Source of the DNA: Candidatus Woesearchaeota archaeon
GTDB taxonomy: Archaea > Nanobdellota > Nanobdellia > Woesearchaeales > JAGVYF01
Direction: 5' to 3'
Assembly: GCA_041650315.1 (NCBI GenBank)
Contig: JBAZLJ010000001.1
Coordinates: 5,947 to 69,946, forward strand
DNA: 64,000 nucleotides
Position 1 is the stretch's first letter; each line of letters starts with the position of its first letter. Positions 3,001 through 41,133 of the stretch are shown here, piece by piece. The notes under the pieces were generated by a model. It saw only the letters and a program-made list of their open reading frames with translations, searched no databases and was not told where the DNA came from. The position numbers and the translations under genes were made by a program.

Positions 3001-6000
3001 CTTCTCTCATACCAGATTGATTGTAACAAGGTGTTGTGCCGATTCCGTTCGGGCAATATTCCCTGTACCTGTAATCCAAATCGCCTTCATCGAAATTTCC
3101 AACAAAGAAGTCTTGGACTGGCATTATCTCGTGAACATATACTGCGCTGTAGCCGGTGTAATTTCCTACAGCTTTGACTCTGTAGCTGTACTGTCTTCCG
3201 TAAATGACTGGAATTGTGTAACAGAATGTGCCTGTGCTTGTTTTTACTGTTACTGCAGTTTCGCTGAAATCTGAAGATAGTTCATTCCAATACTGGATTG
3301 ATACGTTCACTGGGTTGTGGCCATTTAAACTTGTTAGATTGCCGCAGACTCTTACGTTTTCTTTTGACCTATTTTCAGTGTAGTTCAAGATAACTGATGA
3401 CGGAACTACATATTCTGTTCCTAACAAGAAACTGCCTGTCGCTGTTGAGTTGCCTATTGAGCCGGACGAGAGTACTTCGTAATAATAAGTCGTGTTTGTA
3501 TTTAGATTGGTCAAAGGTATCAATGGGTGCGTAGTTATCATGTCCCAGGTCTTGTTCGTGGTGTATGTGACTGTCCAATTCATGAGATTAGGAGTATCTA
3601 CGTCCAAGAATGTGATTGAATAAGGTATCCTAGTGGCATTGATTGTGTAATTCATGTTATATGCCCCCGTAGTACAAGTCACATTCAATAAAGTAATATA
3701 ATCTGCTCCATGCACTGCTAAATCTCTCAATGATTCAACGTTGCCTGGAATGTTATAGAAACGTTCTGTGACGTTCTTGTATTCAAATGCTCTTGTGCTC
3801 TGGAAGAACCATGGGTTGGTAGCGTACTTGACCTGATTGTTAGCTATCTGGTCAACAGTCCATGTTATGTTTGTGGATGTTGCTGTCCTCCCATAACTAT
3901 CATTCACATTCGAGATTACCGGAAGATCTTGATATGGAGTCTCTTTATTGTCCATGGTATAATAAGGAGTGGCGATTGTGTAAGATACAACTGATTCGTT
4001 CGCTGCTGCTTGCGGATAGCCATAATACATCCAGAGCTTGACATCATAATCACCATCTAGACCTGATTTGTATGATTGATTGTTATCATCGAAATGATTG
4101 GATTGCACCAATATGTCCGCTCTTGATGCGAACATCCACGTTATCATTGATTCGTAGAAGTATGACGAAATATCATTGTTCTCATATACAAATGTCCAGG
4201 CCTTGCTAGTCTGGTTCATACAATAAGTGTCTGCGTAAGGTATGCTGTAGTTCTGCACTGTTTTAAATTCCAGATTAGTTCCGCCAAAGCATGCGCTCGG
4301 TATCTCGCTGTCCCAGTACCAGTTTCCTACATAGAGTCTTAATAATGATGATGTCTTTGCACCCGCTGGGATTGTGTAGTTGTACCATTGCGTGCCGAAC
4401 AATCCTGCCTGGCTAGGGATACATCTTGATGCCCAATCTGCATCGTGGCAGTAAGTCGTGTTATCATAGCTGCCCACATACATTGTTGAGTCAGGTATGG
4501 TTTGAGTGGTTGAACCGCCTGTGCCTGCGATGTTCCACTCTTTTATGTCGTATGGAAGCACATTTTGTGATTGGTAATCTGTGAATCTTATATCATTGCC
4601 ATTGGTGTAGTTCAACGTGTCGAAGTCTGGATAAGTTGACCATAGCGCAGTCCTTTGGAAATTTTCGTCTGTTAAAGATATGTTGAGTACTCCTGTTTCT
4701 GTATCTGCTGAGATTTGACTGGAGTCTATTGTTATGAGTCTCCTGTACAACCAATTGGTGAGTTGAGGATGCCAGCCAGAAGTCCTGAAATATGATTCTC
4801 CATATTCGCCTTCATAGCCAGTGACACCTTGCTGCCATCTTAATTTGTATTCTGTGTCTGGATCCAAACTTGTGAATGTACCATTATTATTCGTCACGAA
4901 CAGAACTGCTTGAAGATCAAATGCGACTGTCTGCTCGTTGAGGTTGTAGATGTATAGCGAGGTCCAGTTGCCTGCGATGGAGTTATCCCATCTGAGTAGA
5001 ACGGATGTCCTGTTGATATCCTCAAATCTGAGATTCTTTAGATTGGGTTCTTCTATTGTTATTGTGAAATTGCCTGTTCTGATTGTGTTGCCTGCCCAGT
5101 CAGTGAGGTCATAGAACCATGTGTAGACACCATTGATTAAGTTGACTAATGCGCCTATCACTCCGCTTGTAAGTCTACTGAGGTATGTCAATGTGATATT
5201 GTAGTATAGTCCTGTGCTGTTGTAGACATACAATGTAGCATTTCTCAAACCGAATGAATCTGTGAAATTTACTGACAGATTCTGTGATGGATTGCCCCAT
5301 CTACTCGCGTTTGCTGGCCCGTATAGATTGGCTGAGACATTCTGCAGGTCTATGAACAACGTTCTTCTCTCTGTGCTGTTCTCGTTGTTCGCCTGGTCTC
5401 TTGCGGAAGCGTAGTATGTGTACTGGCTGTGTTCTAATCCAGTAGTTGCGTTCTTGGATTGATTTGAGTAGAAGTACCACTGCGTGCTGTTGAATTTCTG
5501 GAGATTGGATATGTATAACTGTTGAATCTCATTGTATGATAAAGATCTATTCCACATACGGACTTCGTCGATTGATCCGTTGAAGAACCCACTTATTGAT
5601 GGAGTTACAGTACCTATCGTTAAATCCCTGCTTAAATCGATGTTTGGATTCGACCCGGCAGTAGCGTGTGGGGGTTCAGTCAAATTAATGCCATCAACAA
5701 AAATCTGAAGACTTGCTGCAATAGTGCCATATTTCACAATTGTGATGAAGTGCCATTTACCATCATGTACATCTATTATTGATTTGTTGTATACTCTTGC
5801 ATCCTGATAATTAGTAGGGAAACTCTGTGCAGTCCAGAAATATAACATCGCACCAGCACCACTACTATTTTGAGCACTTCTTAGGTACCAACCATTATCC
5901 GCTCCATCACTACGAGCTATAATATACGCGCCATTTTTGTTCGTTGTCTGATTGTATTGTTTTATCCATAATGTGACTGCAAATTGCCCCGAGCCTACAT

Positions 6001-9000
6001 TGAGATTGGCGTTGTTAGTTATGTTTATGTAATCATTCACTCCGTCGAATGAATATGCTCCACCATATCTTCCGTTTGGTGTCCATGTTGCGCCTGAGAC
6101 TACTGCATTATTGCCTTTATTGGATGTATCTTTGACAATTGTAGATGATTCGCCTAACTCTGTGACATTCTCGAAGTTATACATAAATAACAAACTGCTA
6201 TTGTAGATTGTTGTGTTCGTGTTGTTCCAGTTCCAAATAAACTGAGTCATGTTCTGCTCTGTTACGCTGATGTTTATATCAGCCCATCTTGTTGTTGTTA
6301 TTGTAGCGTTTGTCACTGATGAAGAAGTGAATGACAATAATGGTGGAATGTTGTCTAAGACTGTAAACGATATGTTGGAGCCTTCTGCTATAAGTCCAGT
6401 TGAATCTGAGCAATTAACATTCCATATGTAAGTAGAGCCGTCTGTCGGGAAAGTTAGGGAAGTGAAGTTTATTGCCGTGCCGGTCTTTGTCTCAATCTGA
6501 CGGAAGACTCCCGAAGTTGTCCAATTGACTGCACCTTCAGTGTAAGCAGTATAATCTGGACCGCCAGTTATAGAATAGATGTATGTCTTCACTCTGAACA
6601 AGCTACCAGTTAATCCCGCTGATGGAATTACCACATTCGATAAATCAAACCCTTCGGGTATTCTCTTAGAAGTCAAGTTTTCCCAATTATTTGATGAATA
6701 ATTCCAATACATGATTAATTCATCGCAACCATTACCAGGGTTAACTGCATCTGCGCACCATATAGAATAATTCCACACTGCGGAAGTTGTGCCTGAAGGA
6801 ATCGTGAAATTCTCAAATACTATTCCAGTAGTCATAGCCGCACTAGACTGGCCAGTTACCCAATTTTGATCTGTACCACCACTGCAGTCTCCAGAAGCAG
6901 GGTTTTCGCATGAAAAAGCAGTTGCTTGATCAATTACATATGAATAAGGCATATCGCCGTACAATGTGCATGTGCCCGCTGTTGTAGTTGTGGCTGAGAA
7001 GATGTATGTCGTCCTGTCGTTGGTGTAATTGACCTGCGACTGGATATTAAACAATACATCATAGCCGATTGTGACTTTTGATAATTCAGGTGTTACATTT
7101 CCGTCGCCTTCGAAGTATGCTTTGTACTGGAAATATGTGTTGTTGGCTAGTGGTCTTAGGTCTAGATAGGTTGTGTTTGTTGTTGATACTGAATATGATT
7201 CTCCTTCGCAGAGTGCATCATCGCATGAACGCGCGGTGATGTTGAGCTTGGTTAAGCCCCTTCTATAAATATTCCAAATCTCTGTAGCCGATAGAGAACG
7301 ATTCCAAATTGCGACTTCGTCGATGGTGCCGTTCCAGTATCTATTCAGTGAAGAATCACCGCCTATAACTACTTCATTAGCTCCGTTCTGTAATGTACCT
7401 TGCTTGGTGGGAGTGCCTTCTCGAAGCCCATTAACATATATCAAAGCATGAGTACCATTATAATTACCAACAACAAAATACCATTGGTTATCATTTAGAG
7501 AGGTAGTACTTGCTGAAGACTGCCAAGTGCCATTATTTGTCCAAAAACTAATAGTAGATGATGAAGTTACTGATGAACTGAATTCTAATGACCACTCATT
7601 GCCGGGTTTTCTTATGACTGGAGCATAATTCCGGTTAGTAGTTCCAAATCTAGGATAAACCCATGCACCCACAGTCAATGCTGTACTCTGATCTAAGCTG
7701 GCACTATTGCTTGCGTTCACGTAATCGTTTACACCATCAAATAAGTATGCCCCTCCGAATTTGCCGGAAATATTAGCCACACCATTCCTTGTTATACCAT
7801 TATTGCCAGTTCCTGAAGAGTCAAGGGCATTACCATTAAAATGCATAAGAAGAACGTTGCCTGTCATGTTTGCACCCAAACTAGCTATGTCAACTCCTTT
7901 AGAATTTGGCAGTTCTTGTCCCGAATAATTGTATGACGTAACTAACGTCAGATTCTTCCAGTGCGGCGTTGTGGATGCCTCGAATATACGGGATTCGTAA
8001 TAACCTTGATCAATGTATGTTGATTTCTGGCGATTGTAGATGGTCGCTATTTCTGTTGCTGGTAGAGAGCGATTCCAGACTGCGAATTCGTCAAGTTCTC
8101 CGCATTGCTGATTGCCCCCTGTGACATAATTACCTATACTGGAAAGCATTTGATTATTTATCCTTGAGGCTGAAGTGCCCACATAGCTTCCATCAACATA
8201 AAATAATGTGGAAGACCCTGAAGCAGTTGTAGCTATATGGTGCCATCCAGTCAAAGAGCTCGTAACATAACCGGATGAATAAAATGCGCCATTAAAGCAC
8301 CCCAAATAATCGCTGGAATTGATTAGTATATGGTGATATGTTCCGCCGTTTGTTGAAGCTATAGTTCTCCATCCCGCAGTTGTTGTCGGCAGGGGGAATA
8401 ATTTCCAGACTGAAATAGAGTACTGTGTTGAGGTGTTTATTCCTGAGAAGGTAATTACCGATCCAGGGACTGTAAAATTAAATCCGCCATTGAATTTACC
8501 GGTTTGATTTGTTGCATTGACTGCAACCCCATTATAACCTGAACCAGAACTATCTAGCGCATTGCCGTTGAAGTGCCATAATCCGACGTTGCCGGTCATG
8601 TTCACATATCCATCATTTGCTTTATTGTTTGGCAATTCCTGTAGGCTGTCGTTGTCTTCCAAAGAGACGTTAGTTGCTGTTAGATGTGTGTAGTTGTATC
8701 TGCCTAAATCCCATCCGGAGAAAGTCTGATTATCTGTCCATGTTTTCGAACCTTCACTGTCAAATACTAATGCTGCCCAGTGGAAGAAGCCGTCAACGAG
8801 CATGTGGTAGAGTGATAGAGTTGTGTCTATCACTGACGTTACTATGCCGGCGCCGGTGAGTGCCATTGTTGTGCCCAGCTGCCAGACACCTAATAGGTCG
8901 TGGTAGATTGTGATGTTCCTTACGGAATTATCTGTGATATTGACGAAGAATGTGTTTGTCTCGCCGATGTTGTATGAGTTGTTGCCGGTCAATGGCGAGA

Positions 9001-12000
9001 TTACTGCCAGAATTGGAGGGATGTCGATTGAGTTCACTCTTAGGTCTGTTCTGTTGCTGTTGCCAGCTGTGTCTTTCGCATTCGCGAAGTATGTGTAGTT
9101 GCCGGATGATGTTACTTGTTGATTGACAAGGAGCGACCATTTATCTGTGGCATATTTGTTTAGATTGGTCTGGTAGAGTTGCGAGACTTCTGCGGCGGAT
9201 AAACTGCGGTTGTAGATACGGACTTCGTCGATGGTGCCGTTGAAGTAAAGTCCCTCAGTAGGAGAAGTTCTTCTCCCGATATCTAAAGTGTGATTCCCAG
9301 CTATAGTCCCAGAATGTACTTTTGTAAAATTGCCCATATAAACTCCGTCAATCCAAACTTTTTCTTCGGCCATACTCAATGTCCAAATTATATTATACCA
9401 TTTTCCCGCGTTCCAATTCCCTTCTGAGTTACATATTGTAATTCCTTCGTCATACCCTGTACTAGAGCCGTTAGAAGTATAGGTATGGACGCACCCATTT
9501 GGATAAGCATCTAACTCATATTCGGTATAATGTTTCCCGACCAATGTCGCTCTCGGGTTAATTATTTGAGTAGGTTTAAACCAAACTGAGATTGATATGT
9601 AATTACTCATATCTAAAGAAGCAGTGTCTGTAATATTGATAAAATCATTTAACCCATCGAATGAATATGCACCATTATACTTACCGGAAACATTGTATCC
9701 TGCGCCGTATATTATTCCATCATTGCCATTACCGCTCAAATCTTTTATTATACTTGCTGATTCACCCAACGCCGCTACGTTATTGAAATTGTACATTGCC
9801 ACTAAACTGCTGTTGTATAACGTCGTATTCGTTCCGTTCCAGTTCCAGATCACTTCATTGAGATTCGCTTCTGTGATGCTGATGTTGATTGGGATGACTG
9901 TGAGGTTTGTGTGCGTTGCGTTCGCGAGTGTTGGATTTGTGAAATATATCTCAGGCACTGGATTGACTGTGACTTGCCTTACTTCCGTGCCGTTCGCGTT
10001 ACCGGCAGCGTCTTTCGCGTAAGCGGAGTAGTTGAATGTGGTGATACCGTATACGCTTGTTGTATCTTCGTTCGCTTGGAATGTCCATTTGTCGGTTGCG
10101 TATTTGTTGAGGTTGGTTTGATATAATTGCGAGACTTCTGCGGCGGATAAACTTCTATTCCAAATTCGAGGCTCATCGATAGATCCTTGGAAAAATTGTG
10201 TTCCTTCCCTTGAACCAATCCTTAGATTTACAGTGTTCTTTATTGTCCCTATAAGATTATTATATTCTAACGCAATTGGTTGTTCCAAACCATCAATATA
10301 TATCTTAAATGCTGTAGCATTAACTGTGTCATTCTTAGTTACAGTTACATGATGCCAATTATTATCGTTGATTGCTTTGCCCCCTGCAGAAACATTGACA
10401 TATGCCGAAATCGCGTTAGTGGGCCAAGAATTAATTATATGAACTTTAATTGAATAAGGGCATTGAGCGGCACTTCCGCAATAATATAAATCATATCCTA
10501 TAGCGTTATTCCCGGGGTCCATCTTTGCGATTATACCTGCGCCAGCACTTGATGTTGTCTCCACCCACGCGGCCAATGTATATGACTCATTCCTTTCAAA
10601 ACTAATAGAACTAGAATTACCTGCATCAATATAATCATTGACTCCATCAAATTGTCCCGCTAAACCATACTTGCTTGTTTCATTGAATATGACTCCGGTT
10701 ACAACTCCATCATTAAGAGAATTGGATAAGTCTTTTACCACTGTTCCACTCTCCCCTAGCGCTGCTATGCTATCAAAATTATACATCAGTACAAGACTAT
10801 CATTATATATCGTCGTGTTCGTTCCGTTCCAGTCCCAGATCACTTCCCTGAGATTGGCTTCTGTTATACTGATATTAACCGGAAGGATTGTGAGGTTTGT
10901 GTGCGTTGCGTTTGCTAGTGTTGGAGCGACAAATGATAATTGCGGAACTATTGCTTGTGATGTCAACATCCTCTCAGTGCTGTTGCTGTTGGAGTCTGCG
11001 TCCAAAACGCTTGCGGAGTAGATGTAATTGGATTGGTTGAATACTTCGGTGACGGACTGGTTGATGAAGTAAGTCCATTTGTCGGTTGCGTATTTATTGA
11101 GGTTTGATGAATACAATTGCGTAACTTCTGCGGAGGATAAAACTCTATCCCATATCATCACGCTATCCAATGTATCATTAAATGCTTCATTCTTATCAAA
11201 AAGACTTATCCCATCTTGTTCCTGACCTAATACTAGGGATCCATTTAATGATAGACGTAGGTTTGAGTTGAGTAAATATGTACCCATCAAAACTCCATCT
11301 TTGTAGATAGTAGATTGATTGTCGCTCATTCTCCATGTAACGACAAAATGATGCCATTGATTATCATTCACAGTAACTCCTGAGGAATAACCATTGCCAG
11401 CCCTATACACATACAAAAAACCATTGCTACCTATAAAAATTAACCAATCATTACTATTTTTATCTGTGGCGTATGAAACTATCGCTGCACTAATATCTGT
11501 AGTTTTTATCCATAATGATGTTGTGATACTAGTGATAAAATCTGATCCTGCCTTTAATGGATTCCTTATCAAATAACTTGTTGTATCTCCGGTGAAATTC
11601 ATACCTACACCATACTTTCCTTCAGGCACTCTATATGCGCCAGTTATATTCATATCATATCCTGAGTGACTTGTGTCTATTGCTAAAGAAGAAGTCTCCC
11701 CTATAGAGCTATAATTGTCGAAATCTAATTTTAAAATAAGGCTGTCATTATACAAAGTCGTATTCGTTCCGTTCCAGCTCCAAGTCAATTGTTCTAAGTT
11801 CGCTTCTGTTATGCTGATGTTGATTGGGATGACAGTGAGATTCGATACGGATGCGTTCGGGAATGATGACGGCGCGAAAGAGATTGCAGGGATGATTGTG
11901 TCAACTGTCAATGATCTTATTTCAGTACTGCCTTCAACATTGTATGTATTCTTAGCGCTGCCGTAATAAGTATATGAACCATCATCTAATCTAGTAGTTG

Positions 12001-15000
12001 CGTTCTTGGATTGGTTCACGTAGAAGTACCATTGAGATGAGTTGAATTTTTGGAGATTGGACATGTAAAGCATAGATATTTCATCAGCTGAAAGAGAACG
12101 ATTGTATATTTTAAAATCGTCCATTGTACCGTTTGCGGGACCGTCCCAATCTGCACCATAATCGGTGTTAAGACCTATTCTGAGAGGAGTTACTGTATGA
12201 TACCGATGGCCATAGTATGGTGAAGACATAGCTAGTTTGCCATCAACATACAAACTAACTACCTTATTGACGTCATCAACTGTGCCTGCAAGATGCACCC
12301 ATTTATTCGGCACTAATGCATTAACACTATAAATCTGAGTCATGCCCGCCGTATCATTATTAATCCTAAAATAGATGTTTTTATTGTTATCAATATACAT
12401 CAGTGAAATATAATCTGAGAACATTGTTTGAAGATTATGCGGGACTACCGGACTAGGATCACTATATGCATAGTACCAAAGCGAATAAGTCACGCTTGAC
12501 TCGCTGATGTTAGTTGATAATGAGTCAAGAACCTCAATAATACTGCCATTGGCATTGAAACCGCGACCCGAACCGAATTTACCCGTAGTCACTGCGGGGC
12601 AAGTTGTGCATGATACACCTATATTATTAGAGCCAGTATCGTTGATTACGGATCCGCTCTCGCTCAATCCCGCGAGATTATCAAAGTTAAGCATTGTCAC
12701 TAAATCATTACTATATATAGTATAATTTGTATTATTCCAGCTGTGAATATATCGAGACAATCCCGAAGTAGAAATACTTATGTTGATTGGAACGCTTGTG
12801 CTTCCAGTCACTTGTTCGTCCGAGTATGTTGATGGGATGAATTGCATTGATGCTGCTCCCGCTAATGTAGTGAATGATATGTTCGAGCCCCATATAATAC
12901 CGCCAGAACTGTCCGAGCAATTGATTCCCCAACTATAAGTAGATCCTGTGCCGAGGAATATTGATGTGAAATTGAACGGCACTGTGCCAACTACTGCTTT
13001 TGTTTCTACTTTCGACCATGAACCTGCCCAGTTACCATATAGTGTGCAGTAATCTGCGCCGGATTGATTTGCCGAGAAGGTATATGTAAAACGATCGTTT
13101 GTGAAGTTGCGCTGGTCTGTGATGTTCATCATGAGACCGCCAAACGAATATACAATTGTGCCGACCGAACCTGCTGATGCAGCAGTAGTACATGCTGTGC
13201 CAGAAGTACCTGCTGCACCTAAGGCAACTGATTGAGTAGAGCTAGTGTTATACAATGATGAATATGCGATATATATTCTGCCTCCCCCGCCACCGCCACC
13301 GCTACAAGCACGTGTTGAACTAGTACATGATCCTCCGTCACCGCCAGAAGTATCGATTGACGCAGAAGAAATATTTACAAATCTGGCTCTTAATATTACG
13401 TGACCTCCTGAACCGCCACCGCCACATCCTGTCCCTGTTACTCCTGAACCTAAAGCAGTATCTCCATAAGCATAAATTGCTCCATGTACATCTATAATCC
13501 CATGATTTGCGTTTATGAATACTCCGCCCCCTCCATTAGCACCAGTAGTACTACCTGCAGCGCCCGCACCACCGCCACCGCCAGATCCTATGAAAAATGG
13601 CAGTGTATTAGATGCACCATAACTAGCTCCCCCTAAACCTATTTGGCAAGTAGAATAAGATTCACCGCCTGCGCCGCCTATTCCGCCAAAACCGCCGCCG
13701 CCACCGCCTGCACCCCTAGTCAAGAAACTTGCATAAACCTGTTGAGCGCCGCCGCCTGCTCCACCATTTGCAACATAAGAAGCTGCTCCCGCAGATCTAT
13801 CAATTCCATCTGTCCCTTGATAAGCTTGACAATTGGATGTAGTACATGTAGCACCACCTAATGCGCCAGAACCATTCGCGTAGATTATCGCGCCAGATGC
13901 CATTGTGAAGTTGCCATATGAACCAAGAGATATGTTAATGTGACCCGCAGTGGCGTTGCTTGCGATGAATGTACATACGTGAAGTCTTGCTGTTGAAGTT
14001 AATTCAATTGAGTCGTATTGTTTTACCTCACCGCACATTTTGTACCAACCAGTTATCCTCAATGGATTAGCGAAGTTATTTGCGTAACCAAATAAATCGC
14101 CGAATTGGAACTCTAAGTGGTGCGCACCTCTGCTCCAGACTTGCGATGTCTCTGTGCTGTTGACTGCGCAGGAATAGTTTTCAACGAATATCTCGCTGGT
14201 TTCATTACGCCATGTGAAGTTAACGAATTCTTCACCGCATTTCAGTTCGAGGAAGTTCAAGTCAGGCGTTTCACTCAAGTAATTCAATATTGTTCCATTG
14301 ATTGCACGGATTGTCAGATTCGCAGTTCCGATAGTTCCGAAGTTCACTGTCCAATTGCCGTTGACTGCTGGATAAGATTGTACGTTGAAGATTGTTAATT
14401 CTATTTCGTAAGTTTCGTTGGATAAGTGCGGCACAATCCAACTGATTGATTCAGTCATCAAATCTGAATCGGAATCTAGATAGTTAATATCGCCAGTGAA
14501 CGGCTCTCTTACGCCGTCCACTAGATGATATAACTTAATTTGGTGGTTATACAAGGTTGAAATCTCATGCGGCAACATTACGGTTGCCAAGATGTCTGTG
14601 TAATGTGTCTCTGAAGAAATTGTAACTTGCTTCTTATTTTCAGAAATAATCTGTTCATGAGCAATAGGCGCTTCTGTCTGATATTCTATATAATAGTCTG
14701 ATACGTTGCTTTCTAGTTCTAATTCGATTTCTTTATCTTTCTGCTTGAACTTGTGTTGTGAAACAACGGCTGATGCAGAATCTGGTAACTGGACTTTTAC
14801 TTTTGCATCTTTTACTTTATTAGAATCAATCTTAATGTGTTTGGTCCAACTGACTGGTTTGCCTACTTCAACGAAGCCTTGTGCATCTGTTTCAGTTATT
14901 CCGTCTGTTACGTTTGATGCTTGTTCGGTTGGTACTTGGTCAGTCTCATCAATAATATCGCCATACACTTCATCGACAACGACATAATAACCAGATGATA

Positions 15001-15400
15001 ATTCATTACTATTTCCGGTTACCAGCAATGTGAAATCGCCGGATGCTGAATATGTTCTTGAAACGCCGTAATGCACTTCTGAAGAATAAAGGTCTACTGT
15101 GTCAATTACTATATTATTTTCCAACACTTCAACTATACCGAAATCGTCACGGGTCTGGAACACGACTGTGACGTTGCCGTTTACATTGTAGCTCAATGTA
15201 GAATCTGGTGTGTTGGAGAACAAGGCAGAACCACCAATGTATTCATCACTATCAATACCCATCCAAACGCCTTGCTGGATAACATTACCTGTGATGGATG
15301 GCGGACTAGCTACCAAAGCCCATAGCATGAACACTAATGAAAGTACCAGGATCTCGTTGAATATCCCATTCTTCTCATTCCTAACGTACTTTGGTCTCAT
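1..15400 (-). CDS. Giant secreted or membrane-anchored surface protein, partial (3' end beyond the left edge; at least 5,133 codons in the window). N-terminal signal/anchor, Gly-rich solenoid-like region, at least 8 LamG (Laminin_G_3/concanavalin-like) modules, Ig/FN3-like spacers, DUF2341-like segment
   Basis: Hand translation of the minus strand, in the frame whose codon-top coordinates are 1 mod 3, is stop-free from ATG 15400-15398 down to position 2. An alternative in-frame ATG lies at 15418 with a TGA just upstream. The ORF track would have listed any complete ORF here, so the frame must be open to the window edge. The N-terminus reads MRPKYVRNEKNGIFNEILVLSLVFMLWALVASPP. The LamG hallmark F(N/Q)G(T/S)IDE(V/P)R(I/M)(W/Y)NRSLSxxE(V/I) was read at about 480, 5560, 7300, 8085, 9215, 10165, 11150 and 12105. 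For example, 9181-9250 reverse-complemented gives LYFNGTIDEVRIYNRSLSAAEVS. A purine-rich GAAAGAGGA lies just upstream of 15400. Confidence 0.85.
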   Translation of the reverse strand, partial: MRPKYVRNEKNGIFNEILVLSLVFMLWALVASPPSITGNVIQQGVWMGIDSDEYIGGSALFSNTPDSTLSYNVNGNVTVVFQTRDDFGIVEVLENNIVIDTVDLYSSEVHYGVSRTYSASGDFTLLVTGNSNELSSGYYVVVDEVYGDIIDETDQVPTEQASNVTDGITETDAQGFVEVGKPVSWTKHIKIDSNKVKDAKVKVQLPDSASAVVSQHKFKQKDKEIELELESNVSDYYIEYQTEAPIAHEQIISENKKQVTISSETHYTDILATVMLPHEISTLYNHQIKLYHLVDGVREPFTGDINYLDSDSDLMTESISWIVPHLSNETYEIELTIFNVQSYPAVNGNWTVNFGTIGTANLTIRAINGTILNYLSETPDLNFLELKCGEEFVNFTWRNETSEIFVENYSCAVNSTETSQVWSRGAHHLEFQFGDLFGYANNFANPLRITGWYKMCGEVKQYDSIELTSTARLHVCTFIASNATAGHINISLGSYGNFTMASGAIIYANGSGALGGATCTTSNCQAYQGTDGIDRSAGAASYVANGGAGGGAQQVYASFLTRGAGGGGGGFGGIGGAGGESYSTCQIGLGGASYGASNTLPFFIGSGGGGGAGAAGSTTGANGGGGVFINANHGIIDVHGAIYAYGDTALGSGVTGTGCGGGGSGGHVILRARFVNISSASIDTSGGDGGSCTSSTRACSGGGGGGGRIYIAYSSLYNTSSTQSVALGAAGTSGTACTTAASAGSVGTIVYSFGGLMMNITDQRNFTNDRFTYTFSANQSGADYCTLYGNWAGSWSKVETKAVVGTVPFNFTSIFLGTGSTYSWGINCSDSSGGIIWGSNISFTTLAGAASMQFIPSTYSDEQVTGSTSVPINISISTSGLSRYIHSWNNTNYTIYSNDLVTMLNFDNLAGLSESGSVINDTGSNNIGVSCTTCPAVTTGKFGSGRGFNANGSIIEVLDSLSTNISESSVTYSLWYYAYSDPSPVVPHNLQTMFSDYISLMYIDNNKNIYFRINNDTAGMTQIYSVNALVPNKWVHLAGTVDDVNKVVSLYVDGKLAMSSPYYGHRYHTVTPLRIGLNTDYGADWDGPANGTMDDFKIYNRSLSADEISMLYMSNLQKFNSSQWYFYVNQSKNATTRLDDGSYTYYGSAKNTYNVEGSTEIRSLTVDTIIPAISFAPSSFPNASVSNLTVIPINISITEANLEQLTWSWNGTNTTLYNDSLILKLDFDNYSSIGETSSLAIDTSHSGYDMNITGAYRVPEGKYGVGMNFTGDTTSYLIRNPLKAGSDFITSITTSLWIKTTDISAAIVSYATDKNSNDWLIFIGSNGFLYVYRAGNGYSSGVTVNDNQWHHFVVTWRMSDNQSTIYKDGVLMGTYLLNSNLRLSLNGSLVLGQEQDGISLFDKNEAFNDTLDSVMIWDRVLSSAEVTQLYSSNLNKYATDKWTYFINQSVTEVFNQSNYIYSASVLDADSNSNSTERMLTSQAIVPQLSFVAPTLANATHTNLTILPVNISITEANLREVIWDWNGTNTTIYNDSLVLMYNFDSIAALGESGTVVKDLSNSLNDGVVTGVIFNETSKYGLAGQFDGVNDYIDAGNSSSISFERNESYTLAAWVETTSSAGAGIIAKMDPGNNAIGYDLYYCGSAAQCPYSIKVHIINSWPTNAISAYVNVSAGGKAINDNNWHHVTVTKNDTVNATAFKIYIDGLEQPIALEYNNLIGTIKNTVNLRIGSREGTQFFQGSIDEPRIWNRSLSAAEVSQLYQTNLNKYATDKWTFQANEDTTSVYGITTFNYSAYAKDAAGNANGTEVRQVTVNPVPEIYFTNPTLANATHTNLTVIPINISITEANLNEVIWNWNGTNTTLYNSSLVAMYNFNNVAALGESASIIKDLSGNGNDGIIYGAGYNVSGKYNGAYSFDGLNDFINITDTASLDMSNYISISVWFKPTQIINPRATLVGKHYTEYELDAYPNGCVHTYTSNGSSTGYDEGITICNSEGNWNAGKWYNIIWTLSMAEEKVWIDGVYMGNFTKVHSGTIAGNHTLDIGRRTSPTEGLYFNGTIDEVRIYNRSLSAAEVSQLYQTNLNKYATDKWSLLVNQQVTSSGNYTYFANAKDTAGNSNRTDLRVNSIDIPPILAVISPLTGNNSYNIGETNTFFVNITDNSVRNITIYHDLLGVWQLGTTMALTGAGIVTSVIDTTLSLYHMLVDGFFHWAALVFDSEGSKTWTDNQTFSGWDLGRYNYTHLTATNVSLEDNDSLQELPNNKANDGYVNMTGNVGLWHFNGNALDSSGSGYNGVAVNATNQTGKFNGGFNFTVPGSVITFSGINTSTQYSISVWKLFPLPTTTAGWRTIASTNGGTYHHILINSSDYLGCFNGAFYSSGYVTSSLTGWHHIATTASGSSTLFYVDGSYVGTSASRINNQMLSSIGNYVTGGNQQCGELDEFAVWNRSLPATEIATIYNRQKSTYIDQGYYESRIFEASTTPHWKNLTLVTSYNYSGQELPNSKGVDIASLGANMTGNVLLMHFNGNALDSSGTGNNGITRNGVANISGKFGGAYLFDGVNDYVNASNSASLDQSTALTVGAWVYPRFGTTNRNYAPVIRKPGNEWSLEFSSSVTSSSTISFWTNNGTWQSSASTTSLNDNQWYFVVGNYNGTHALIYVNGLREGTPTKQGTLQNGANEVVIGGDSSLNRYWNGTIDEVAIWNRSLSATEIWNIYRRGLTKLNITARSCDDALCEGESYSVSTTNTTYLDLRPLANNTYFQYKAYFEGDGNVTPELSKVTIGYDVLFNIQSQVNYTNDRTTYIFSATTTTAGTCTLYGDMPYSYVIDQATAFSCENPASGDCSGGTDQNWVTGQSSAAMTTGIVFENFTIPSGTTSAVWNYSIWCADAVNPGNGCDELIMYWNYSSNNWENLTSKRIPEGFDLSNVVIPSAGLTGSLFRVKTYIYSITGGPDYTAYTEGAVNWTTSGVFRQIETKTGTAINFTSLTFPTDGSTYIWNVNCSDSTGLIAEGSNISFTVLDNIPPLLSFTSSSVTNATITTTRWADINISVTEQNMTQFIWNWNNTNTTIYNSSLLFMYNFENVTELGESSTIVKDTSNKGNNAVVSGATWTPNGRYGGAYSFDGVNDYINITNNANLNVGSGQFAVTLWIKQYNQTTNKNGAYIIARSDGADNGWYLRSAQNSSGAGAMLYFWTAQSFPTNYQDARVYNKSIIDVHDGKWHFITIVKYGTIAASLQIFVDGINLTEPPHATAGSNPNIDLSRDLTIGTVTPSISGFFNGSIDEVRMWNRSLSYNEIQQLYISNLQKFNSTQWYFYSNQSKNATTGLEHSQYTYYASARDQANNENSTERRTLFIDLQNVSANLYGPANASRWGNPSQNLSVNFTDSFGLRNATLYVYNSTGLYYNITLTYLSRLTSGVIGALVNLINGVYTWFYDLTDWAGNTIRTGNFTITIEEPNLKNLRFEDINRTSVLLRWDNSIAGNWTSLYIYNLNEQTVAFDLQAVLFVTNNNGTFTSLDPDTEYKLRWQQGVTGYEGEYGESYFRTSGWHPQLTNWLYRRLITIDSSQISADTETGVLNISLTDENFQRTALWSTYPDFDTLNYTNGNDIRFTDYQSQNVLPYDIKEWNIAGTGGSTTQTIPDSTMYVGSYDNTTYCHDADWASRCIPSQAGLFGTQWYNYTIPAGAKTSSLLRLYVGNWYWDSEIPSACFGGTNLEFKTVQNYSIPYADTYCMNQTSKAWTFVYENNDISSYFYESMITWMFASRADILVQSNHFDDNNQSYKSGLDGDYDVKLWMYYGYPQAAANESVVSYTIATPYYTMDNKETPYQDLPVISNVNDSYGRTATSTNITWTVDQIANNQVKYATNPWFFQSTRAFEYKNVTERFYNIPGNVESLRDLAVHGADYITLLNVTCTTGAYNMNYTINATRIPYSITFLDVDTPNLMNWTVTYTTNKTWDMITTHPLIPLTNLNTNTTYYYEVLSSGSIGNSTATGSFLLGTEYVVPSSVILNYTENRSKENVRVCGNLTSLNGHNPVNVSIQYWNELSSDFSETAVTVKTSTGTFCYTIPVIYGRQYSYRVKAVGNYTGYSAVYVHEIMPVQDFFVGNFDEGDLDYRYREYCPNGIGTTPCYNQSGMREGSYQEENWVWIESGLSIYGNLTARWWNGTAWTNYTLTKDPDSAMQYRRIDNLPATWQTMYIINNSGYVALNWTKPALERNRTGLRRDDTKYVYFNSPKQSIDYTITYTDYLTYQTDALTYCMENGGNVFDCMSVITFGTPDMDPDMVGSKYDRGGLFAGGVTNGVNRDTGRLIPNFMEYNFTNTDAGIGAYNNTGRNCYLFTIYYWEYNYTPNNNINSYYYRHWQMNEWWSDYYGYIQPVEFDYACLKLYNDTTAEWGPESGVGGCLNGTSITTEVSVPNSTDIDKAKFFSPYNQTLKVGYAANFDVDTGSDSIYDIVLYNHGQWNNQIFNKYQQAFVIFNLPDNATLQSTDSNGDGISDFDALFTYYTNPKMTHTAGGRLSDAQKISLDRNPNLYFDEVTVNIYYPLDNVKYGTSIPVNFSALDYSGIGACKYSINGGVNTTIPGCANNLTITGLGNGTNILRIYANSSHDNDTHMDLVTFTVDATPPNVTLINITGITGALITHTNPVLSGDNATFYINITTDTAVDKVWIVVWQTIASAGNILWQGFLSLISGTLLDGIWSIQVPVNNSFGGVVNYTIYANDTLRNVGNFSGNFTANRYPIVTNVNITPYTLYTNNYPSAMWSYSDPDSDAQNRSVYTWYLNGTEAWRDNSLVAYWKFDNNYLDSAGSNHATTSKGLLANNSAKIKSGLDLLNTSGTYIQVSSSTPFAVPNKTISFWANPNSTMGSGHNMPFSLVSGNYYISFNGYDMFISYANSTGQQKTSLLSNNDAVKLNEWHHYTFSWNVSGDNVLVYGYIDGNFVGSIAETQGYSTSYGASVLIGAFSTTSYTFLGKLDEMKFWNRTLSAQEIKQESEMMNYGEVLNPPVALWHFDEGAGNTVKDAIGGNDGVRNYNANWTNNSIYNGGLDFNGQIGYAQVSPGTKLNFGNDTSFTYSAWVKSDKGMNGIYGILSNLNSVNGNYCGMALTRTNSDRIEAFIGDGIGTYTRKTITGLTLNNGW
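5400..12800 (-). repeat. Intragenic tandem modules of about 1.0-1.1 kb (LamG plus Ig-like unit) inside the giant gene
   Basis: Plus-strand shadow ORFs at 9624, 10638 and 11715 (and 12507) encode near-identical peptides, e.g. LYNVVFVPFQFQITSLRFASVMLMLIGMTVRFVCVAFASVG versus LYIVVFVPFQSQITSLRLASVILILTGRIVRFVCVAFASVG. Their starts are offset by 1,014 and 1,077 bp. On the coding strand the block PTLANATHTNLT(V/I)(I/L)PINISITEANL..(V/I)W.WNGTNTT(L/I)YN recurs. Confidence 0.75.
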
Positions 15401-15869
15401 TATCCTCTTTCCCTGCATTCAATTTCTTCTTAGCTCTGGAATAAACTGTCCAGACTGTTCTGTCGTTACGGCCGAGCATATCGCCTATCTCATGGAACGA
15501 GAATCCGCGTTTTTCACGGAGATAGAAAACAATAGCTTCCAAGACTGCGCAACGGCGGTCTAGAAGCACGCTGATTGGCACGAAAATTTCTGTAGAAATA
15601 GTTTGGGTTTTGGGTCTAGATTCGCGCTTTTTCTGGACACGGGAATAAACTGTCCATATTGTTCTCTCGTCCCTATTGGTTAAGACGGCAATATCGTGAT
15701 AATTATGGTTGAAATTCTGTTTAAGGTATTCAACAAGTATCTCAAATACGCTAAGTGATCTGTCTTGGAATATTGAAACTGGAATTTCTAGATTGAAATC
15801 AGATTTTTTAGTATCAGAACTAGCATTTTCTATAGATTCTACTGAATTATCTCCCCTTTTTTGACCCAT
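15381..15869 (-). CDS. Small DNA-binding protein with two tandem sigma-70-region-4 / HTH_10(Bat)-like helix-turn-helix repeats; putative regulator of the giant surface-protein gene
   Basis: Internal duplication: IPVSIFQDRSLSVFEILVEYLKQN..YHDIAVLTNRDERTIWTVYSRVQKK and VPISVLLDRRCAVLEAIVFYLREKRGFSFHEIGDMLGRNDRTVWTVYSRAKKKL. The stop at 15381 overlaps the giant ORF start at 15400 by 20 nt. A paralogue lies at 40496-40978. Confidence 0.7.
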   Translation of the reverse strand: MGQKRGDNSVESIENASSDTKKSDFNLEIPVSIFQDRSLSVFEILVEYLKQNFNHNYHDIAVLTNRDERTIWTVYSRVQKKRESRPKTQTISTEIFVPISVLLDRRCAVLEAIVFYLREKRGFSFHEIGDMLGRNDRTVWTVYSRAKKKLNAGKEDNETKVR

Positions 15870-15894
15870 TATATGTCTAAACCCAAAATAACAT

Positions 15895-16130
15895 TACATT
15901 GTAAGTACTTTTTTGTATATAAAGGTTTCTTTTTATATATTATATATGAAATAACACTACATTGTAAGTATTATAAATTTTTGGCCAGAAAGTGCTCATC
16001 CGGATAGTGCCTAACTATGATCTTTGAAATTTTTGTTTTTGCTACTGCTCATTACTTACAATGTAAGGTAAAGTATATATAGTTTTTGGTTTATTGTAAT
16101 AAATTGAAGTAAATAATACTTACAATGTAG
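15895..16130. promoter_or_regulatory. Divergent promoter region with four exact copies of TACATTGTAAGTA (two direct, two inverted); candidate operator array with TATA-like boxes
   Basis: TACATTGTAAGTA at 15895-15907 and 15958-15970; its reverse complement TACTTACAATGTA at 16053-16065 and 16118-16130. Each site contains the palindrome TACA-T-TGTA. Spacings are 63 and 65 bp. TATA-like tatataaagg at about 15915 and cttataaaaa at about 16156. Confidence 0.6.
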
Positions 16131-16185
16131 GTAAAATTTAAGATGTAACAAAAAGCTTATAAAAAACAGATGATTTACACCTAAT

Positions 16186-16641: not shown

Positions 16642-16654
16642 ATTGTTTGCTTTA

Positions 16655-18351: not shown

Positions 18352-18377
18352 AACATAATAAAAAAGTAAAAGAAGAC

Positions 18378-18638: not shown

Positions 18639-18735
18639 TTAATAGAACGCGTTATATAAATATAACTATAATAGAATAAAGTAATAAGATATAATGTTAG
18701 ATACTTTTATATTATAGAAAACTCACTTTACTCCC

Positions 18736-39207: not shown

Positions 39208-40506
39208 TTATCTTCTAAAAAAACTGAACAGACTTTTTTTGTTTTCGACGACTTCTTTTTTTGTAAGTTCATCCGGCCTCTCTTTTTGCCACTTAATCTT
39301 GGAATGGAGATTGTTATTCAATTCATGATCAAGTTCGTTCATATAACTGCTCAATTCGTTTGTTTTTTGCTCGATTTCTTTATGAATTTTGTGGACCGCT
39401 CTTTTTCTAGTGAAAGCAGTTGTTTGTTCAGGCAATGCGATTGACATAGATGAATTAGCTAATGGGTTTGTTGAAGGACGCGCGGATTGCAGATTGATAT
39501 CTTCATGGAGATTGCCTTGGATTTGGCTCTCTAATCTTTGCGCGAGCATTACTAAACGATCCATTTCAGATGGTTCTTCTTTTCTTGCTCTTTTCCAAGA
39601 TTTCGGAGCCGTCTCCTCTGGTTCTGTTTCAATCATCTCTTCCATCTCCGGCTCAGCAAGCACTTCATTATTGATCTTTATGCTTGACAATAGCTTGAAA
39701 GGCGCTGAAATAATCTCTGATAAAAATATAGCAACAGAGCTGCATAGGGTTGTTGCGAGGTTGGCAGCTCTGCTGCTAATAAATAAAAAGCCAGCCGATA
39801 CAAACCCAACAAGTTCGCGAAGACTGCTTTTTATTTGGTGGAAAACCCCTCTACTCAAGGTTGAGGTAGGAGTGTTAATGTGTATTGTCACTTTGTAAGT
39901 GAATATTTTATATCCAGTATATGCTAGGAATATTATAACATTTTCAATACCTGATTTTATCACAATGATTCCTGAATATAGCACTGATAACATTTCTTTG
40001 AATGCATGAACTTCAATCTCTTTCTTCAATTGAATTTTTGCTTCGACTTTGAGAGTCTTTTTGGCTGCTTTTTTCTCAAAAGATAATTTTGATACCCCCA
40101 ACTTAAGCGATACCAAAAAGAGATTCATCAAAGTCTTGACTAACTGAATGAGTTTGACATCATTTCCGCTGTATCTGAGATATGCGAACAATATCACTAT
40201 CTTTATCAGAAGCAAGAATGGCAGATATTGCGAGGAGGTGTTGACTGATTCAATCGCTGATTCAATATATGGGGCTGAGAAATAACTCATCCCTGCCAAT
40301 GTGGAATCCACCATTCTTTCTGCATCTGATGTATACGCCAAAATCGCTGATTTTACCTCTCGGGGATGCGTGTCTATGCCAAGCGCCGCGAATCCCGTGA
40401 TAGGATTGTAATATTTCAGGAGTATTATCCCTAGTGAGATGATGAATATGACAAACGCCACAAGCAAGGTCTTGTAATCTTCATTTTTTAGATTTTCATT
40501 TACCAT
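39208..40506 (-). CDS. Hypothetical multi-pass membrane protein with a charged C-terminal tail
   Basis: Hydrophobic segments (LLVAFVIFIISLGIILL, PFLLLIKIVILFAYL and others). Start taken at MVNENLK (40506); the track ORF starts at 40545. The start overlaps the stop of the upstream HTH gene. Confidence 0.55.
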   Translation of the reverse strand: MVNENLKNEDYKTLLVAFVIFIISLGIILLKYYNPITGFAALGIDTHPREVKSAILAYTSDAERMVDSTLAGMSYFSAPYIESAIESVNTSSQYLPFLLLIKIVILFAYLRYSGNDVKLIQLVKTLMNLFLVSLKLGVSKLSFEKKAAKKTLKVEAKIQLKKEIEVHAFKEMLSVLYSGIIVIKSGIENVIIFLAYTGYKIFTYKVTIHINTPTSTLSRGVFHQIKSSLRELVGFVSAGFLFISSRAANLATTLCSSVAIFLSEIISAPFKLLSSIKINNEVLAEPEMEEMIETEPEETAPKSWKRARKEEPSEMDRLVMLAQRLESQIQGNLHEDINLQSARPSTNPLANSSMSIALPEQTTAFTRKRAVHKIHKEIEQKTNELSSYMNELDHELNNNLHSKIKWQKERPDELTKKEVVENKKSLFSFFRR

Positions 40507-40978: not shown

Positions 40979-40984
40979 ACTAAT

Positions 40985-41133
40985 ATCTATTTTGGTAGAA
41001 CTTATTTATATATTTTTCTATTAAACTTAGTATTTTATTGATTTTAATTGGATTATTTATTATTTTAATCTATTTCTGTAGCTATTTAAAACTTATCTGT
41101 TGAATTTTATTGCATCTAAATCTATTTATGTAG
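40985..41133. promoter_or_regulatory. Three copies of the 14-mer ATCTATTTN(T/G)GTAG upstream of the second tandem-HTH gene
   Basis: ATCTATTTTGGTAG at 40985-40998, ATCTATTTCTGTAG at 41068-41081, ATCTATTTATGTAG at 41120-41133. Confidence 0.45.

Follow-up and report, generated by a model that had tools for sequence, protein, structure and literature searches.

A tandem sigma-region-4-type HTH protein encoded ahead of a giant archaeal surface protein: a candidate autoregulator from a large DPANN family

Within the 64-kb stretch of archaeal DNA that was analysed (the window), a 162-aa protein with two HTH domains of the sigma-region-4 type is encoded directly ahead of a giant surface-protein gene. 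We consider this protein, with a probability of roughly 0.65, to be an autoregulator that acts as a single-chain pseudo-dimer and probably represses an operon comprising its own gene and the giant gene. Duplication of the HTH module, its fold, the overlap of the two genes, the site array in front of them and the family-wide conservation of both gene pair and motif were observed. Comparison of relatives points to a large, undescribed family of DPANN-archaeal regulators whose predicted target is a conserved 17-bp palindrome located in the promoter of each regulator's gene.

Internal duplication and fold of the HTH protein

Self-alignment of the 162-aa ORF at 15869..15381 (-) indicated two homologous modules of about 55 aa. 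Gapless alignment of residues ~28-84 with residues ~96-152 gave 22 identities in 53 positions (42%, E 2e-18), bearing out the two-copy architecture proposed in a preliminary description of this DNA, and both modules were present in 62 of 62 relatives in the family alignment.

15381..15869, minus strand: tandem sigma-4-type HTH gene, 162 aa (ORF with ATG start; Pfam; AF2; homologues)
15618..15788, minus strand: repeat 1, residues 28-84, consisting of a strand, a short helix and three helices, with recognition helix RTIWTVYSRVQKK (self-alignment, modelled secondary structure, family alignment)
15414..15584, minus strand: repeat 2, residues 96-152, with the layout of repeat 1 and recognition helix RTVWTVYSRAKKK (Pfam, self-alignment, AF2 model, Foldseek)

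An HTH fold, for which a check by structure prediction had been proposed, was predicted for both modules by AF2 (pLDDT 89.9, pTM 0.79) and Foldseek. The repeats superposed on sigma region 4 with rmsd values of 0.5-0.9 Å at 26-30% identity, the Foldseek matches listed for repeat 2 including region 4 of SigE bound to -35 DNA (2h27, 0.5 Å) and of SigR (5fgm, 0.9 Å over 50 columns); for sigma region 4 in 3vep the rmsd was 0.7 Å. The model contained just two beta-strands, residues 28-30 and 96-98, at equivalent positions of both repeats, and these probably pair with each other, which would lock the protein as a pseudo-dimer.

The Pfam profile Sigma70_r4_2 (PF08281) matched residues 112-150 in the second copy at 29.6 bits (cut-off 25.7) and 61 of the 62 relatives (best E 3.7e-13), and HTH_23 matched the second copy at 30.1 (cut-off 24.6); repeat 1 was recognised solely from its homology to repeat 2 and from the structure model, not by Pfam. 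Among Pfam profiles, Sigma70_r2 matched neither the window ORF nor any of the 62 relatives, and NCBIfam sigma models aligned by their region-4 part alone, with scores of 12-39 bits where the cut-offs are 43-323. Identification as a sigma-70 family sigma factor, ECF factors included, was therefore rejected, since region 2 is absent and both repeats are of the region-4 type. HTH_10 (PF04967) did not match the ORF at E values up to 1 and was not one of the 25 most frequent family matches among the 62 relatives; thus, of the initial label "sigma-70-region-4 / HTH_10-like", the first part agrees with Pfam, AF2 and Foldseek and the second is withdrawn. The ORF was likewise unmatched by LuxR/GerE (PF00196, cut-off 23.5 bits; 16.2 bits for a paralogue in the window) and by the Tfx family model TIGR00721, and HTH_18 and HTH_AraC had no profile match in the ORF and were not found among the Pfam matches of its relatives.

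Overlap with the giant surface-protein gene

1..15400, minus strand: 5' part of the giant surface-protein gene, an open frame of >5133 aa that runs past the window edge
15381..15400, minus strand: overlap of 20 nt between HTH stop and giant-gene start (sequence; overlap also in relatives)

The giant frame was free of stops from its ATG at 15400-15398 to window position 1, and the orthologue in L081 is annotated at 13,168 aa. The protein begins with a short cytoplasmic N-terminus, followed by one TM segment, a PPSITG motif and an ectodomain that carries LamG, pentaxin and fn3 domains (Laminin_G_3, E 5e-95 and 2e-61, 8 stretches). The HTH gene ends with TAG at 15383-15381, 20 nt inside the giant ORF, as first described, and the corresponding overlap in orthologues L081 and L082 was 17 nt. 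An alternative in-frame ATG of the giant ORF occurs at 15418; the start at 15400 is backed by orthologous giant proteins whose first residue is the Met aligned with it (MRPKYVRNEKNG / MRRRNKIADN / MKRKTRYDKNG). No oligo-T terminator separates the HTH gene from the giant gene in the window, and a Shine-Dalgarno sequence ahead of the giant-gene ATG was not conserved among the orthologues compared. From this arrangement we infer that the two genes are co-transcribed and that their translation is coupled.

Candidate operators upstream of the HTH gene

Four exact copies of the 13-mer TACTTACAATGTA were found, all within 15895-16129 and none elsewhere in the 64 kb; with up to 2 mismatches allowed there were 8 matches against 2.1 expected, a number reached in 0 of 100 shuffles. 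The 13-mer sites pointed out previously thus proved real, and the 13-mer makes up the conserved half of a longer palindromic sequence of 17 bp, TACTTACA-N-TGTAAGTA. All four sites were located in the 316-nt region upstream of the HTH gene, each with a TATA-like box on its gene-distal side.

15891..15907, minus strand: candidate operator site 1, TACTTACAATGTAATGT, unchanged in 4 orthologous loci
15954..15970, minus strand: candidate operator site 2, TACTTACAATGTAGTGT, abutting TATA-like TTTATAA (15971-15977)
16004..16016, minus strand: invariant block AGTTAGGCACTAT between sites 2 and 3 (orthologue comparison)
16053..16069, minus strand: candidate operator site 3, ACCTTACATTGTAAGTA as read towards the HTH gene (sequence)
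16117..16133, minus strand: candidate operator site 4, TACCTACATTGTAAGTA, abutting TTAAATTTTA (16132-16141)

Site 1 was 8 nt downstream of the TATA box TTTATATA (15916-15923) and 22-38 nt upstream of the ATG, and site 3 was 4 nt downstream of TATATATA (16074-16081), in a block of TATA box and site conserved in 4 orthologues. The four sites and their TATA boxes formed invariant blocks in 4 orthologous intergenic regions that were otherwise 65% identical. Conserved, repeated putative sites, the mark of an autoregulated HTH gene, were thus evident in its own promoter from sequence comparison. As judged from position, the sites are promoter-proximal candidate operators beside predicted TATA boxes; the divergent PUA gene may instead be the one served by sites 3 and 4.

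According to the reading that we prefer, the two sigma-region-4-type HTH domains on one chain would constitute a built-in pseudo-dimer capable of sequence-specific DNA binding, each domain reading one half of the 17-bp (pseudo)palindrome. Since the sites adjoin TATA-like boxes gene-proximally, bound protein would sit between TATA box and start, covering the DNA from the one to the other. Occupancy there would, by the usual archaeal rule, block recruitment of RNA polymerase, so that repression of the unit from which it is transcribed is the most likely effect of the HTH protein, as far as TATA boxes and starts predicted from sequence allow; in characterised archaeal systems, a site between TATA box and start results in repression (PMC4706686). 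This unit would consist of the HTH gene and the gene for the giant LamG-rich surface protein, and the regulator would be made off the same mRNA, by coupled translation, just before the giant protein.

Archaeal transcription initiation uses TBP and TFB, and a tandem sigma-4 protein beside TATA boxes might instead act as an activator or promoter-specificity factor that aids TBP, TFB or RNA polymerase on weak promoters, which would place the giant gene under positive autoregulation, as a switch. In favour of this, whole promoter-like units recur in which a site is closely linked to a TATA-like box, and the TATA-like runs that sites 2 and 4 abut are weak; bacteria use the sigma region-4 fold to recruit polymerase to promoters, and a gene of ~40 kb, if expressed in all-or-none fashion, would be well served by positive feedback. 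To our knowledge, however, archaea are without the bacterial beta-flap that region 4 contacts. In addition, the best-defined units place the site downstream of the TATA box and before the predicted start, which is a repressing position (PMC4706686), and we regard activation as rather unlikely.

Conservation of the motif and its relation to the recognition helices

Across 60 loci, TACTTACA was more than 100-fold enriched upstream of HTH genes relative to flanking DNA: the 100 nt that precede the HTH start contained 8.1 copies per kb, the flanks ~0.07. At least one copy was present upstream in 36 of the 60 loci and at least two in 29, while exact TACTTACA was missing upstream in the other 24 (24/60). 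The arrays consisted of 2-4 tandem units spaced 45-73 nt apart just downstream of TATA boxes, and the palindromic sites were preceded, 3-4 nt upstream, by an A-rich stretch and a TATAAATA-like sequence. In two loci, a RIO kinase gene was likewise preceded by motif clusters, so that the predicted regulon extends beyond surface genes.

The sequence of the sites varied together with that of the recognition helices. Perfect palindromes were found in 10 of 17 loci with two WTVYxR helices, whereas the palindrome TACTTACA(A/T)TGTAAGTA was found in 0 loci with a diverged helix 1, which mostly had asymmetric sites of the form TACTTA-N5-TATGTA. Exceptions were L017, L020 and L031, with symmetric half-sites despite a diverged helix 1, and 3 loci with WTVYxR-type helices in which no site was seen; the association is imperfect and is confounded by the shared ancestry of the loci. 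This pattern is consistent with the suggestion, made at the outset, that a tandem HTH protein mimics a dimer on a palindrome, and it suggests that the HTH protein binds the 17-bp sites.

The repeats might also be something other than operators of the HTH protein, namely a generic promoter element, origin-recognition boxes, an invertible-promoter switch or an RNA structure, with an unrelated role for the protein. Inverted pairs do occur among the window sites, including an 18-nt perfect inverted repeat (15957-15974 and 16113-16130), and a Cdc6/Orc1 gene with a probable origin is ~3 kb away. Against this, no other promoter in the 64-kb window contained the motif, which was about 100-fold depleted in the flanking DNA of the 60 loci and accompanied the HTH gene across genomes whatever the neighbouring genes; most relatives had direct tandem arrays rather than inverted pairs; no recombinase was found nearby, and the central block had the same orientation in 4 of 4 orthologues; and there was neither an Rfam match nor any compensatory base change. 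A non-operator role is accordingly very improbable.

A second cassette, the gene family and its partners

40496..40978, minus strand: diverged tandem-HTH paralogue, 160 aa, 32% identity (tblastn E 7e-16)
39208..40506, minus strand: gene for a 432-aa membrane protein that overlaps the paralogue stop; N-terminal TM segment, then NPITGFA
40985..41133, minus strand: array of three CTACNNAAATAGAT upstream of the paralogue (40985-40998, 41068-41081, 41120-41133)

The paralogue had weak HTH and Sigma70_r4_2 profile matches. Its recognition helices are unlike those of the window HTH protein, and it has its own site array, CTACNNAAATAGAT, each copy of which follows a TATA-like run (3 matches versus 0.02 expected, none elsewhere in the window).

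A word search returned 156 homologues and a profile search 2222 clusters at 50% identity. Family members were present on 310 genomic stretches, and the 80 of these that were listed were nearly all from DPANN assemblies; named relatives and fetched loci were almost all from Woesearchaeota, Pacearchaeota or Nanoarchaeota assemblies. The window itself encodes the archaeal replication genes Cdc6/Orc1, PolD DP1 and DP2, and MCM. A downstream gene on the same strand, for a membrane or secreted protein, overlapped the HTH stop in ~59 of 63 unfused loci; in ~38 loci this partner was 750 to over 3300 aa long or was cut by a contig end, lengths of 1000 to over 3300 aa being frequent. An N-terminal TM or signal segment was present in 55 of 57 downstream partners, so that the tabulation of paralogues and their downstream genes, proposed earlier as a check, upheld the link to secreted or membrane proteins. 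No curated family or paper describing the tandem-HTH family was found. Thus, the preliminary view that the module fits no described system stands, although it is not unique, given the size of the family and the second copy in the window.

In at least 15 of the 80 listed loci, and in many database clusters, the giant protein itself ended in the tandem HTH, as a C-terminal fusion. The fused giants were 1300-5900 aa (longest, 5919 aa), arranged as N-terminal coiled coil, TM segment, ectodomain, short hydrophobic segment, R/K cluster, linker and tandem HTH, and TACATAAATAATAAGTA arrays were found upstream of their genes in 9 of 9 loci. Such proteins raise the possibility that the HTH protein is controlled by the giant protein, through anti-sigma-like sequestration or, in fused forms, a tether with possible proteolytic release, and that surface state feeds back on transcription. 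TM giants that end in a tandem HTH and bear their own candidate operator arrays are in keeping with such control, as are the common cytoplasmic domain of ~90 aa ahead of the TM segment in about half of the unfused partners and a gene order, regulator then single-pass membrane protein, that recalls sigma/anti-sigma pairs. The window giant protein, however, has just ~15 cytoplasmic residues before its TM segment and therefore little with which to bind a regulator, and its C-terminus falls outside the window. Furthermore, the fusions have a C-terminal hydrophobic segment of just 13-16 residues, for which reason their topology is only predicted, and the ~90-aa N-terminal domain matched no anti-sigma or other known family. 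Control by the giant protein thus appears doubtful, while being compatible with autoregulation by the HTH protein as an extra layer.

Tandem sigma-4 HTH and giant surface proteins might, more speculatively, form an unrecognised archaeal signalling system in which the factor is membrane-held, covalently if fused or via the cytoplasmic coiled-coil domain if split, and is released or silenced by ectodomain engagement, for example host contact; we put this forward as a tentative idea with the odds against it. If true, tiny DPANN episymbionts would set their surface-protein repertoire by contact, and several paralogous cassettes with a common operator would cross-regulate.

Comparison with known systems

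The fold of each repeat is common to region 4 of ECF sigma factors (E. coli SigE, 2h27; S. coelicolor SigR, 5fgm), and the recognition helix RTIWTVYSRAKKK resembles the sigma-4.2 helix. In contrast with these factors, the tandem-HTH protein has two region-4 domains and no region 2, its host is a TBP/TFB-dependent archaeon, and its sites are downstream of a TATA box rather than at -35.

With MarA/Rob/SoxS (AraC/XylS) and with paired or Tc3-type domains it shares two HTH units per chain, predicted here to read adjacent half-sites over ~17-20 bp without need of dimerisation, as well as asymmetric sites where the two units differ. There is no sequence or Pfam relationship to AraC/XylS, the HTH being of the sigma-4 class, and the resemblance is functional only; Tc3 was a weak Foldseek match (probability 0.72, TM 0.22-0.33).

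SigI-RsgI of Clostridium thermocellum and SigE-RseA are similar in that a small sigma-4-fold factor is encoded directly upstream of a co-oriented single-pass membrane protein with a large external domain, and in having autoregulated promoters, which are predicted here. They differ in that the window partner is a giant adhesin-like protein with almost no cytoplasmic domain, and neither an anti-sigma domain nor an RNA-polymerase-binding region 2 was detected.

The fused relatives, as opposed to the unfused window giant protein, recall ToxR, CadC and the SREBP/Notch type in combining DNA-binding and extracellular domains in one TM polypeptide, with putative cognate sites in their own promoters. 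Their DNA-binding domain, however, is C-terminal and of the sigma-4 class, the ectodomain extends over thousands of residues, and topology and cleavage are putative.

Finally, Tfx of Methanothermobacter is a precedent for an archaeal gene-specific regulator with a sigma-4/LuxR-like HTH, and the window paralogue matched TIGR00721 faintly, at 17.7 bits, far below the cut-off of 60.25 bits; unlike the tandem-HTH protein, Tfx has a single HTH, another C-terminal domain and no link to a surface gene.

The tandem HTH protein

The window is archaeal chromosomal DNA, encoding Cdc6/Orc1, PolD DP1 and DP2, MCM, IleRS and GyrA, and contains the HTH gene on the minus strand, with an ATG at 15869, 162 codons and a TAG stop at 15383-15381. 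Self-alignment of the HTH protein indicated gapless identity of 42% between its two halves over 53 residues (E 2e-18), and the second HTH copy exceeded the Pfam cut-offs for both Sigma70_r4_2 (29.6 bits, cut-off 25.7) and HTH_23 (30.1 bits, cut-off 24.6). A PDB sequence search gave only marginal matches (SigR region 4 at E 0.12), and a fold search was therefore needed. In an AF2 model obtained with 62 relatives as input (pLDDT 89.9, pTM 0.79), each repeat consisted of a short strand, a short helix and three helices and was superposed on region 4 of SigR at 0.9 Å over 50 columns with 30% identity (5fgm), of SigE on -35 DNA at 0.5 Å (2h27) and of SigD at 0.7 Å (3vep). The two sigma-70-region-4-like modules of the preliminary description were thus confirmed by the duplication, the Sigma70_r4_2 match and the superpositions; its HTH_10 label was dropped, since the Pfam scan of the ORF gave no HTH_10 match.

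No solved chain in the searched structure library matched the whole tandem (TM at most 0.33), indicating that the tandem arrangement is without a solved counterpart in that library. The sole two strands of the model, residues 28-30 and 96-98, occupied equivalent places in both repeats, and these presumably pair, locking both HTH units as a pseudo-dimer.

The giant surface gene and its overlap with the HTH gene

The giant frame began with an ATG at 15400 and ran without a stop for more than 5133 codons, up to window position 1; the HTH and giant genes overlapped by 20 nt, exactly as first described. The predicted giant protein had a short, basic N-terminus followed by one hydrophobic segment and PPSITG, and at least eight Laminin_G_3 domains in addition to pentaxin and fn3 matches. 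Synteny with the window was noted in the orthologous locus L081, where DUF371, PUA, HTH and giant genes occurred in order and the giant orthologue was called as one product of 13,168 aa in a 47.2-kb contig (L081 2532-12548), which would be an exceptionally large predicted protein.

In L081 and the second orthologous locus, L082, the giant proteins began at a Met aligned with position 15400, with overlaps of 17 nt. The sequence GAGGA was present 2 nt ahead of the giant ATG in the window; conservation of a Shine-Dalgarno sequence at this place was not found among the orthologues, and it was for this reason set aside as support for coupling. That the stop/start overlap is conserved and that no oligo-T run separates the two genes speaks for a single transcript on which translation of the pair would be coupled.

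Family size, distribution and gene partners

A word-based search yielded 156 relatives of 125-211 aa, those with names being nearly all from Woesearchaeota or Nanoarchaeota assemblies, and 1.84 billion cluster representatives searched with a profile gave 2222 clusters (1089 with E of 1e-30 or below), among them four-HTH-unit proteins and giant proteins of up to 5919 aa. Sigma70_r4_2 was matched by 61 of 62 aligned family members. The relatives had no family membership in NCBIfam, and matches in PHROGs were partial and confined to the region-4 part of sigma factors. A phage or mobile-element origin of the family was dropped, as a scan of IMG/VR gave no viral relatives. No description of the family, the motif reported below or the gene pair turned up in full-text searches of the literature.

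A scan of one genome per species revealed 310 coding stretches, and 80 loci (L001-L080) were fetched. In about 59 of 63 unfused loci, i.e., those with a separate HTH gene ahead of a partner gene, a same-strand ORF started before the HTH stop, most commonly with an overlap of 4 nt and frequently of 8-20 nt, the longer overlaps being probably over-extended start calls. This partner ORF was 750 to more than 3300 aa long, or cut by the contig end, in about 38 loci. The partner proteins had no overall homology, and their cytoplasmic N-terminal coiled coil, where present, matched no known family or domain. An N-terminal hydrophobic segment was nevertheless present in 55 of 57, which bears out the association of HTH paralogues with genes for secreted or membrane proteins. 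The divergent PUA gene was dropped as a conserved partner of the family because upstream neighbors varied; it was syntenic in the closest clade.

A motif of the form [ILVM][TSVI]G, typically ITG or LTG and more fully (I/L)TG(F/Y/K), lay 3-8 residues past the hydrophobic segment in 35 of the 55 HTH-adjacent surface or secreted proteins as opposed to 15% of control segments. Examples in the window were:

15280-15300, PPSITG of the giant protein
40380-40400, NPITGFA of a second membrane protein

An ITG-type motif was also noted about 10 residues past an AxA-type cleavage site in secreted proteins of about 300 aa encoded downstream of fused genes. The motif may act in sorting or assembly, as a signal not previously described.

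A tandem pair of same-strand HTH cassettes was noted in L019, L045, L046, L052, L055 and L078, the second about 5-6 kb downstream of the first HTH. The order was HTH, a coiled-coil TM protein of about 200 aa, a protein of about 300 aa, further genes, second HTH and giant gene, and operator clusters preceded the second HTH.

Predicted operators and promoter layout

The 13-mer TACTTACAATGTA occurred upstream of the HTH gene in four exact copies, two on the minus strand (15895-15907, 15958-15970) and two on the plus strand (16053-16065, 16117-16129), with no further copy in the 64 kb. Across loci, the density of the 8-mer TACTTACA peaked at 8.1 per kb within 100 nt upstream of the HTH start, falling to 6.4, 4.1 and then 2.4 per kb over the three following 100-nt bins, against a background of about 0.07 per kb beyond 2 kb upstream and 0.03 or less within genes. 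At least one copy within 400 nt upstream was present in 36 of 60 loci and at least two in 29. The full site was a 17-bp palindrome, TACTTACA(A/T)TGTAAGTA. Where the palindromes were perfect, a box resembling TATAAATA or TTTATATA, together with an A-rich run, lay 3-4 nt upstream of each site on the gene-ward strand, and this unit of box and site occurred 2-4 times at a spacing of 45-73 nt. The site thus fills the gap between the TATA box and the expected transcription start. The four predicted operators of the window could be read in the same way, in the direction of the HTH gene:

TATA-like boxes and predicted operators upstream of the HTH gene
15916-15923, towards the HTH gene, TATA box TTTATATA, then 8 nt and site 1 (15891-15907)
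15971-15977, towards the HTH gene, TTTATAA, abutting site 2 (15954-15970)
16074-16081, towards the HTH gene, TATATATA, then 4 nt and site 3 (16053-16069)
16132-16141, towards the HTH gene, TTAAATTTTA, abutting site 4 (16117-16133)

Mean column identity among four orthologous intergenic regions was 65%, the invariant elements being the four sites, the TATA boxes and one further 13-mer, AGTTAGGCACTAT. This block (window 16004-16016, in the middle of the HTH upstream region) was unchanged among the four orthologues, had no second copy in the window and none in the other 80 loci, and may be a site for another factor.

That the sites are unrelated to the HTH protein is unlikely. A generic promoter motif was dropped because no other promoter in the window or the flanks carried it, and origin-recognition boxes because the motif accompanied the HTH gene rather than cdc6. 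An invertible promoter, to which the inverted window sites might point, is improbable given that no recombinase was found, that orientation was the same in four orthologues and that most relatives carried direct arrays. The consensus RNA fold of the four orthologous intergenic regions paired only the inverted sites, with zero compensatory changes, and an Rfam scan of 15300-16700 returned nothing; an RNA element was dropped on these grounds.

Clusters of TACTTACA also preceded a RIO-type kinase gene, with 7 copies in L001, and a gene for a 1313-aa surface protein that had no HTH gene immediately ahead of it and one directly after its stop. From these clusters, the regulon probably reaches past the HTH gene's own operon.

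Additional TACTTACA clusters in fetched loci
L001, 4494-4755
L003, 4733-4742
L059, 4817-4987

Agreement between sites and recognition helices

Among 17 loci in which both helices were of the RTIWTVYxRAKKK type, palindromes were perfect in 10 and near-perfect in 4, including the window. The 17-bp palindrome was found in none of about 35 loci in which helix 1 had diverged (W[AST]TYNN, WHTYN[VS]), most of which had asymmetric sites with TACTTA on one side and TACATA, TACATT or TACGTA on the other. This agreement, to which L017, L020 and L031 were exceptions, is correlative and in part reflects shared ancestry.

The window contained a second paralogue (40978..40496, 32% identity) with different helices. 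Upstream of it were three CTACNNAAATAGAT sites (40985-41133; 0.02 expected, none elsewhere in the window), each following a TATA-like run and the last ending 6 nt ahead of the ATG. Its stop was overlapped by the gene for a 432-aa membrane protein with a TM segment at its start, followed by NPITGFA. This second, diverged cassette of HTH gene, membrane-protein gene and CTACNNAAATAGAT sites spanned 39208-41133.

Fused forms and proposed mechanism

Fusion of the tandem HTH to the C-terminus of a giant protein (up to 3518 aa) was seen in at least 15 of the 80 loci. In their predicted layout, a cytoplasmic coiled-coil domain of about 90 aa, also present in about half of unfused partners, came first, and a TM segment followed by (I/L)TG led into the giant ectodomain. 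Beyond the ectodomain, a short hydrophobic stretch (13-16 residues) and a cluster of R/K residues were joined by a linker of some 60 aa to two HTH units (four in L050 and L053). Directly upstream of the giant gene, 2-3 copies of TACATAAATAATAAGTA were present in 9 of 9 fusions with a complete 5' end; the last copy abutted the ATG and a TATA box lay 24-31 nt upstream, a spacing that is the pattern of a predicted leaderless transcript. The operators thus go with whichever transcription unit encodes the HTH, independent of the place of the HTH within that unit.

The best-supported reading of these sequence comparisons is that the HTH protein is a single-chain pseudo-dimeric DNA-binding protein, which would autoregulate the HTH-giant operon via operators between TATA box and transcription start. 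Repression is more likely than a role as activator or specificity factor. A surface-coupled signaling layer atop the HTH/giant pair is supported for the family by the fusions but is weak at the window locus, where the cytoplasmic N-terminus of the giant protein is only about 15 residues long and the C-terminus lies outside the window. The reading of a regulator, operator array and giant adhesin as one module was essentially right, and its scope grows from a single locus to what appears to be a large family of DPANN autoregulators, not described before, that have a defined operator and are linked with surface-protein genes.

DPANN archaea are thought to depend on host-cell contact, for which giant surface proteins are prime candidates, and have very few recognizable signaling systems. 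To our knowledge, almost nothing is known of the control of their giant surface genes (up to about 40 kb). The analysis gives three testable outputs, namely a regulator family of more than 2000 clusters, a precise 17-bp predicted operator with its variants and a conserved promoter-operator layout. With these defined, the regulon becomes predictable from any Woesearchaeota or Pacearchaeota genome and is open to simple binding assays that do not require culture of the organisms. The fused variants suggest membrane-tethered archaeal transcription factors, which, if true, would be a new route from surface to genome.

Neighboring features

A KilA-N gene (phrog_2657, E 1e-59) and a 100-aa ORF lay between the PUA and DUF371 genes (window 16655-17805, minus strand). 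The pair looks like an inserted phage-like module, since the PUA and DUF371 genes directly abut in syntenic L081. Adjoining Cdc6/Orc1 (19492-20718) was 1.1 kb of AT-rich, non-coding sequence with polypyrimidine repeats (18352-19491, about 32% GC), and the cumulative GC skew minimum of the window was near 18 kb. This segment is probably a replication origin; no ORB repeats were clearly recognizable in it.

Comparison with known systems

Each HTH domain belongs to the fold and Pfam family of sigma region 4. The HTH protein itself is not a sigma factor, as it lacks region 2 and comes from an archaeon. Its proposed function is like that of single-chain regulators with two HTH units, such as MarA, and in gene order the HTH-giant pair resembles sigma/anti-sigma pairs, although the protein is a sequence member of neither group. 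Similarly, the fused relatives are like ToxR-type tethered regulators without being sequence members of that group.
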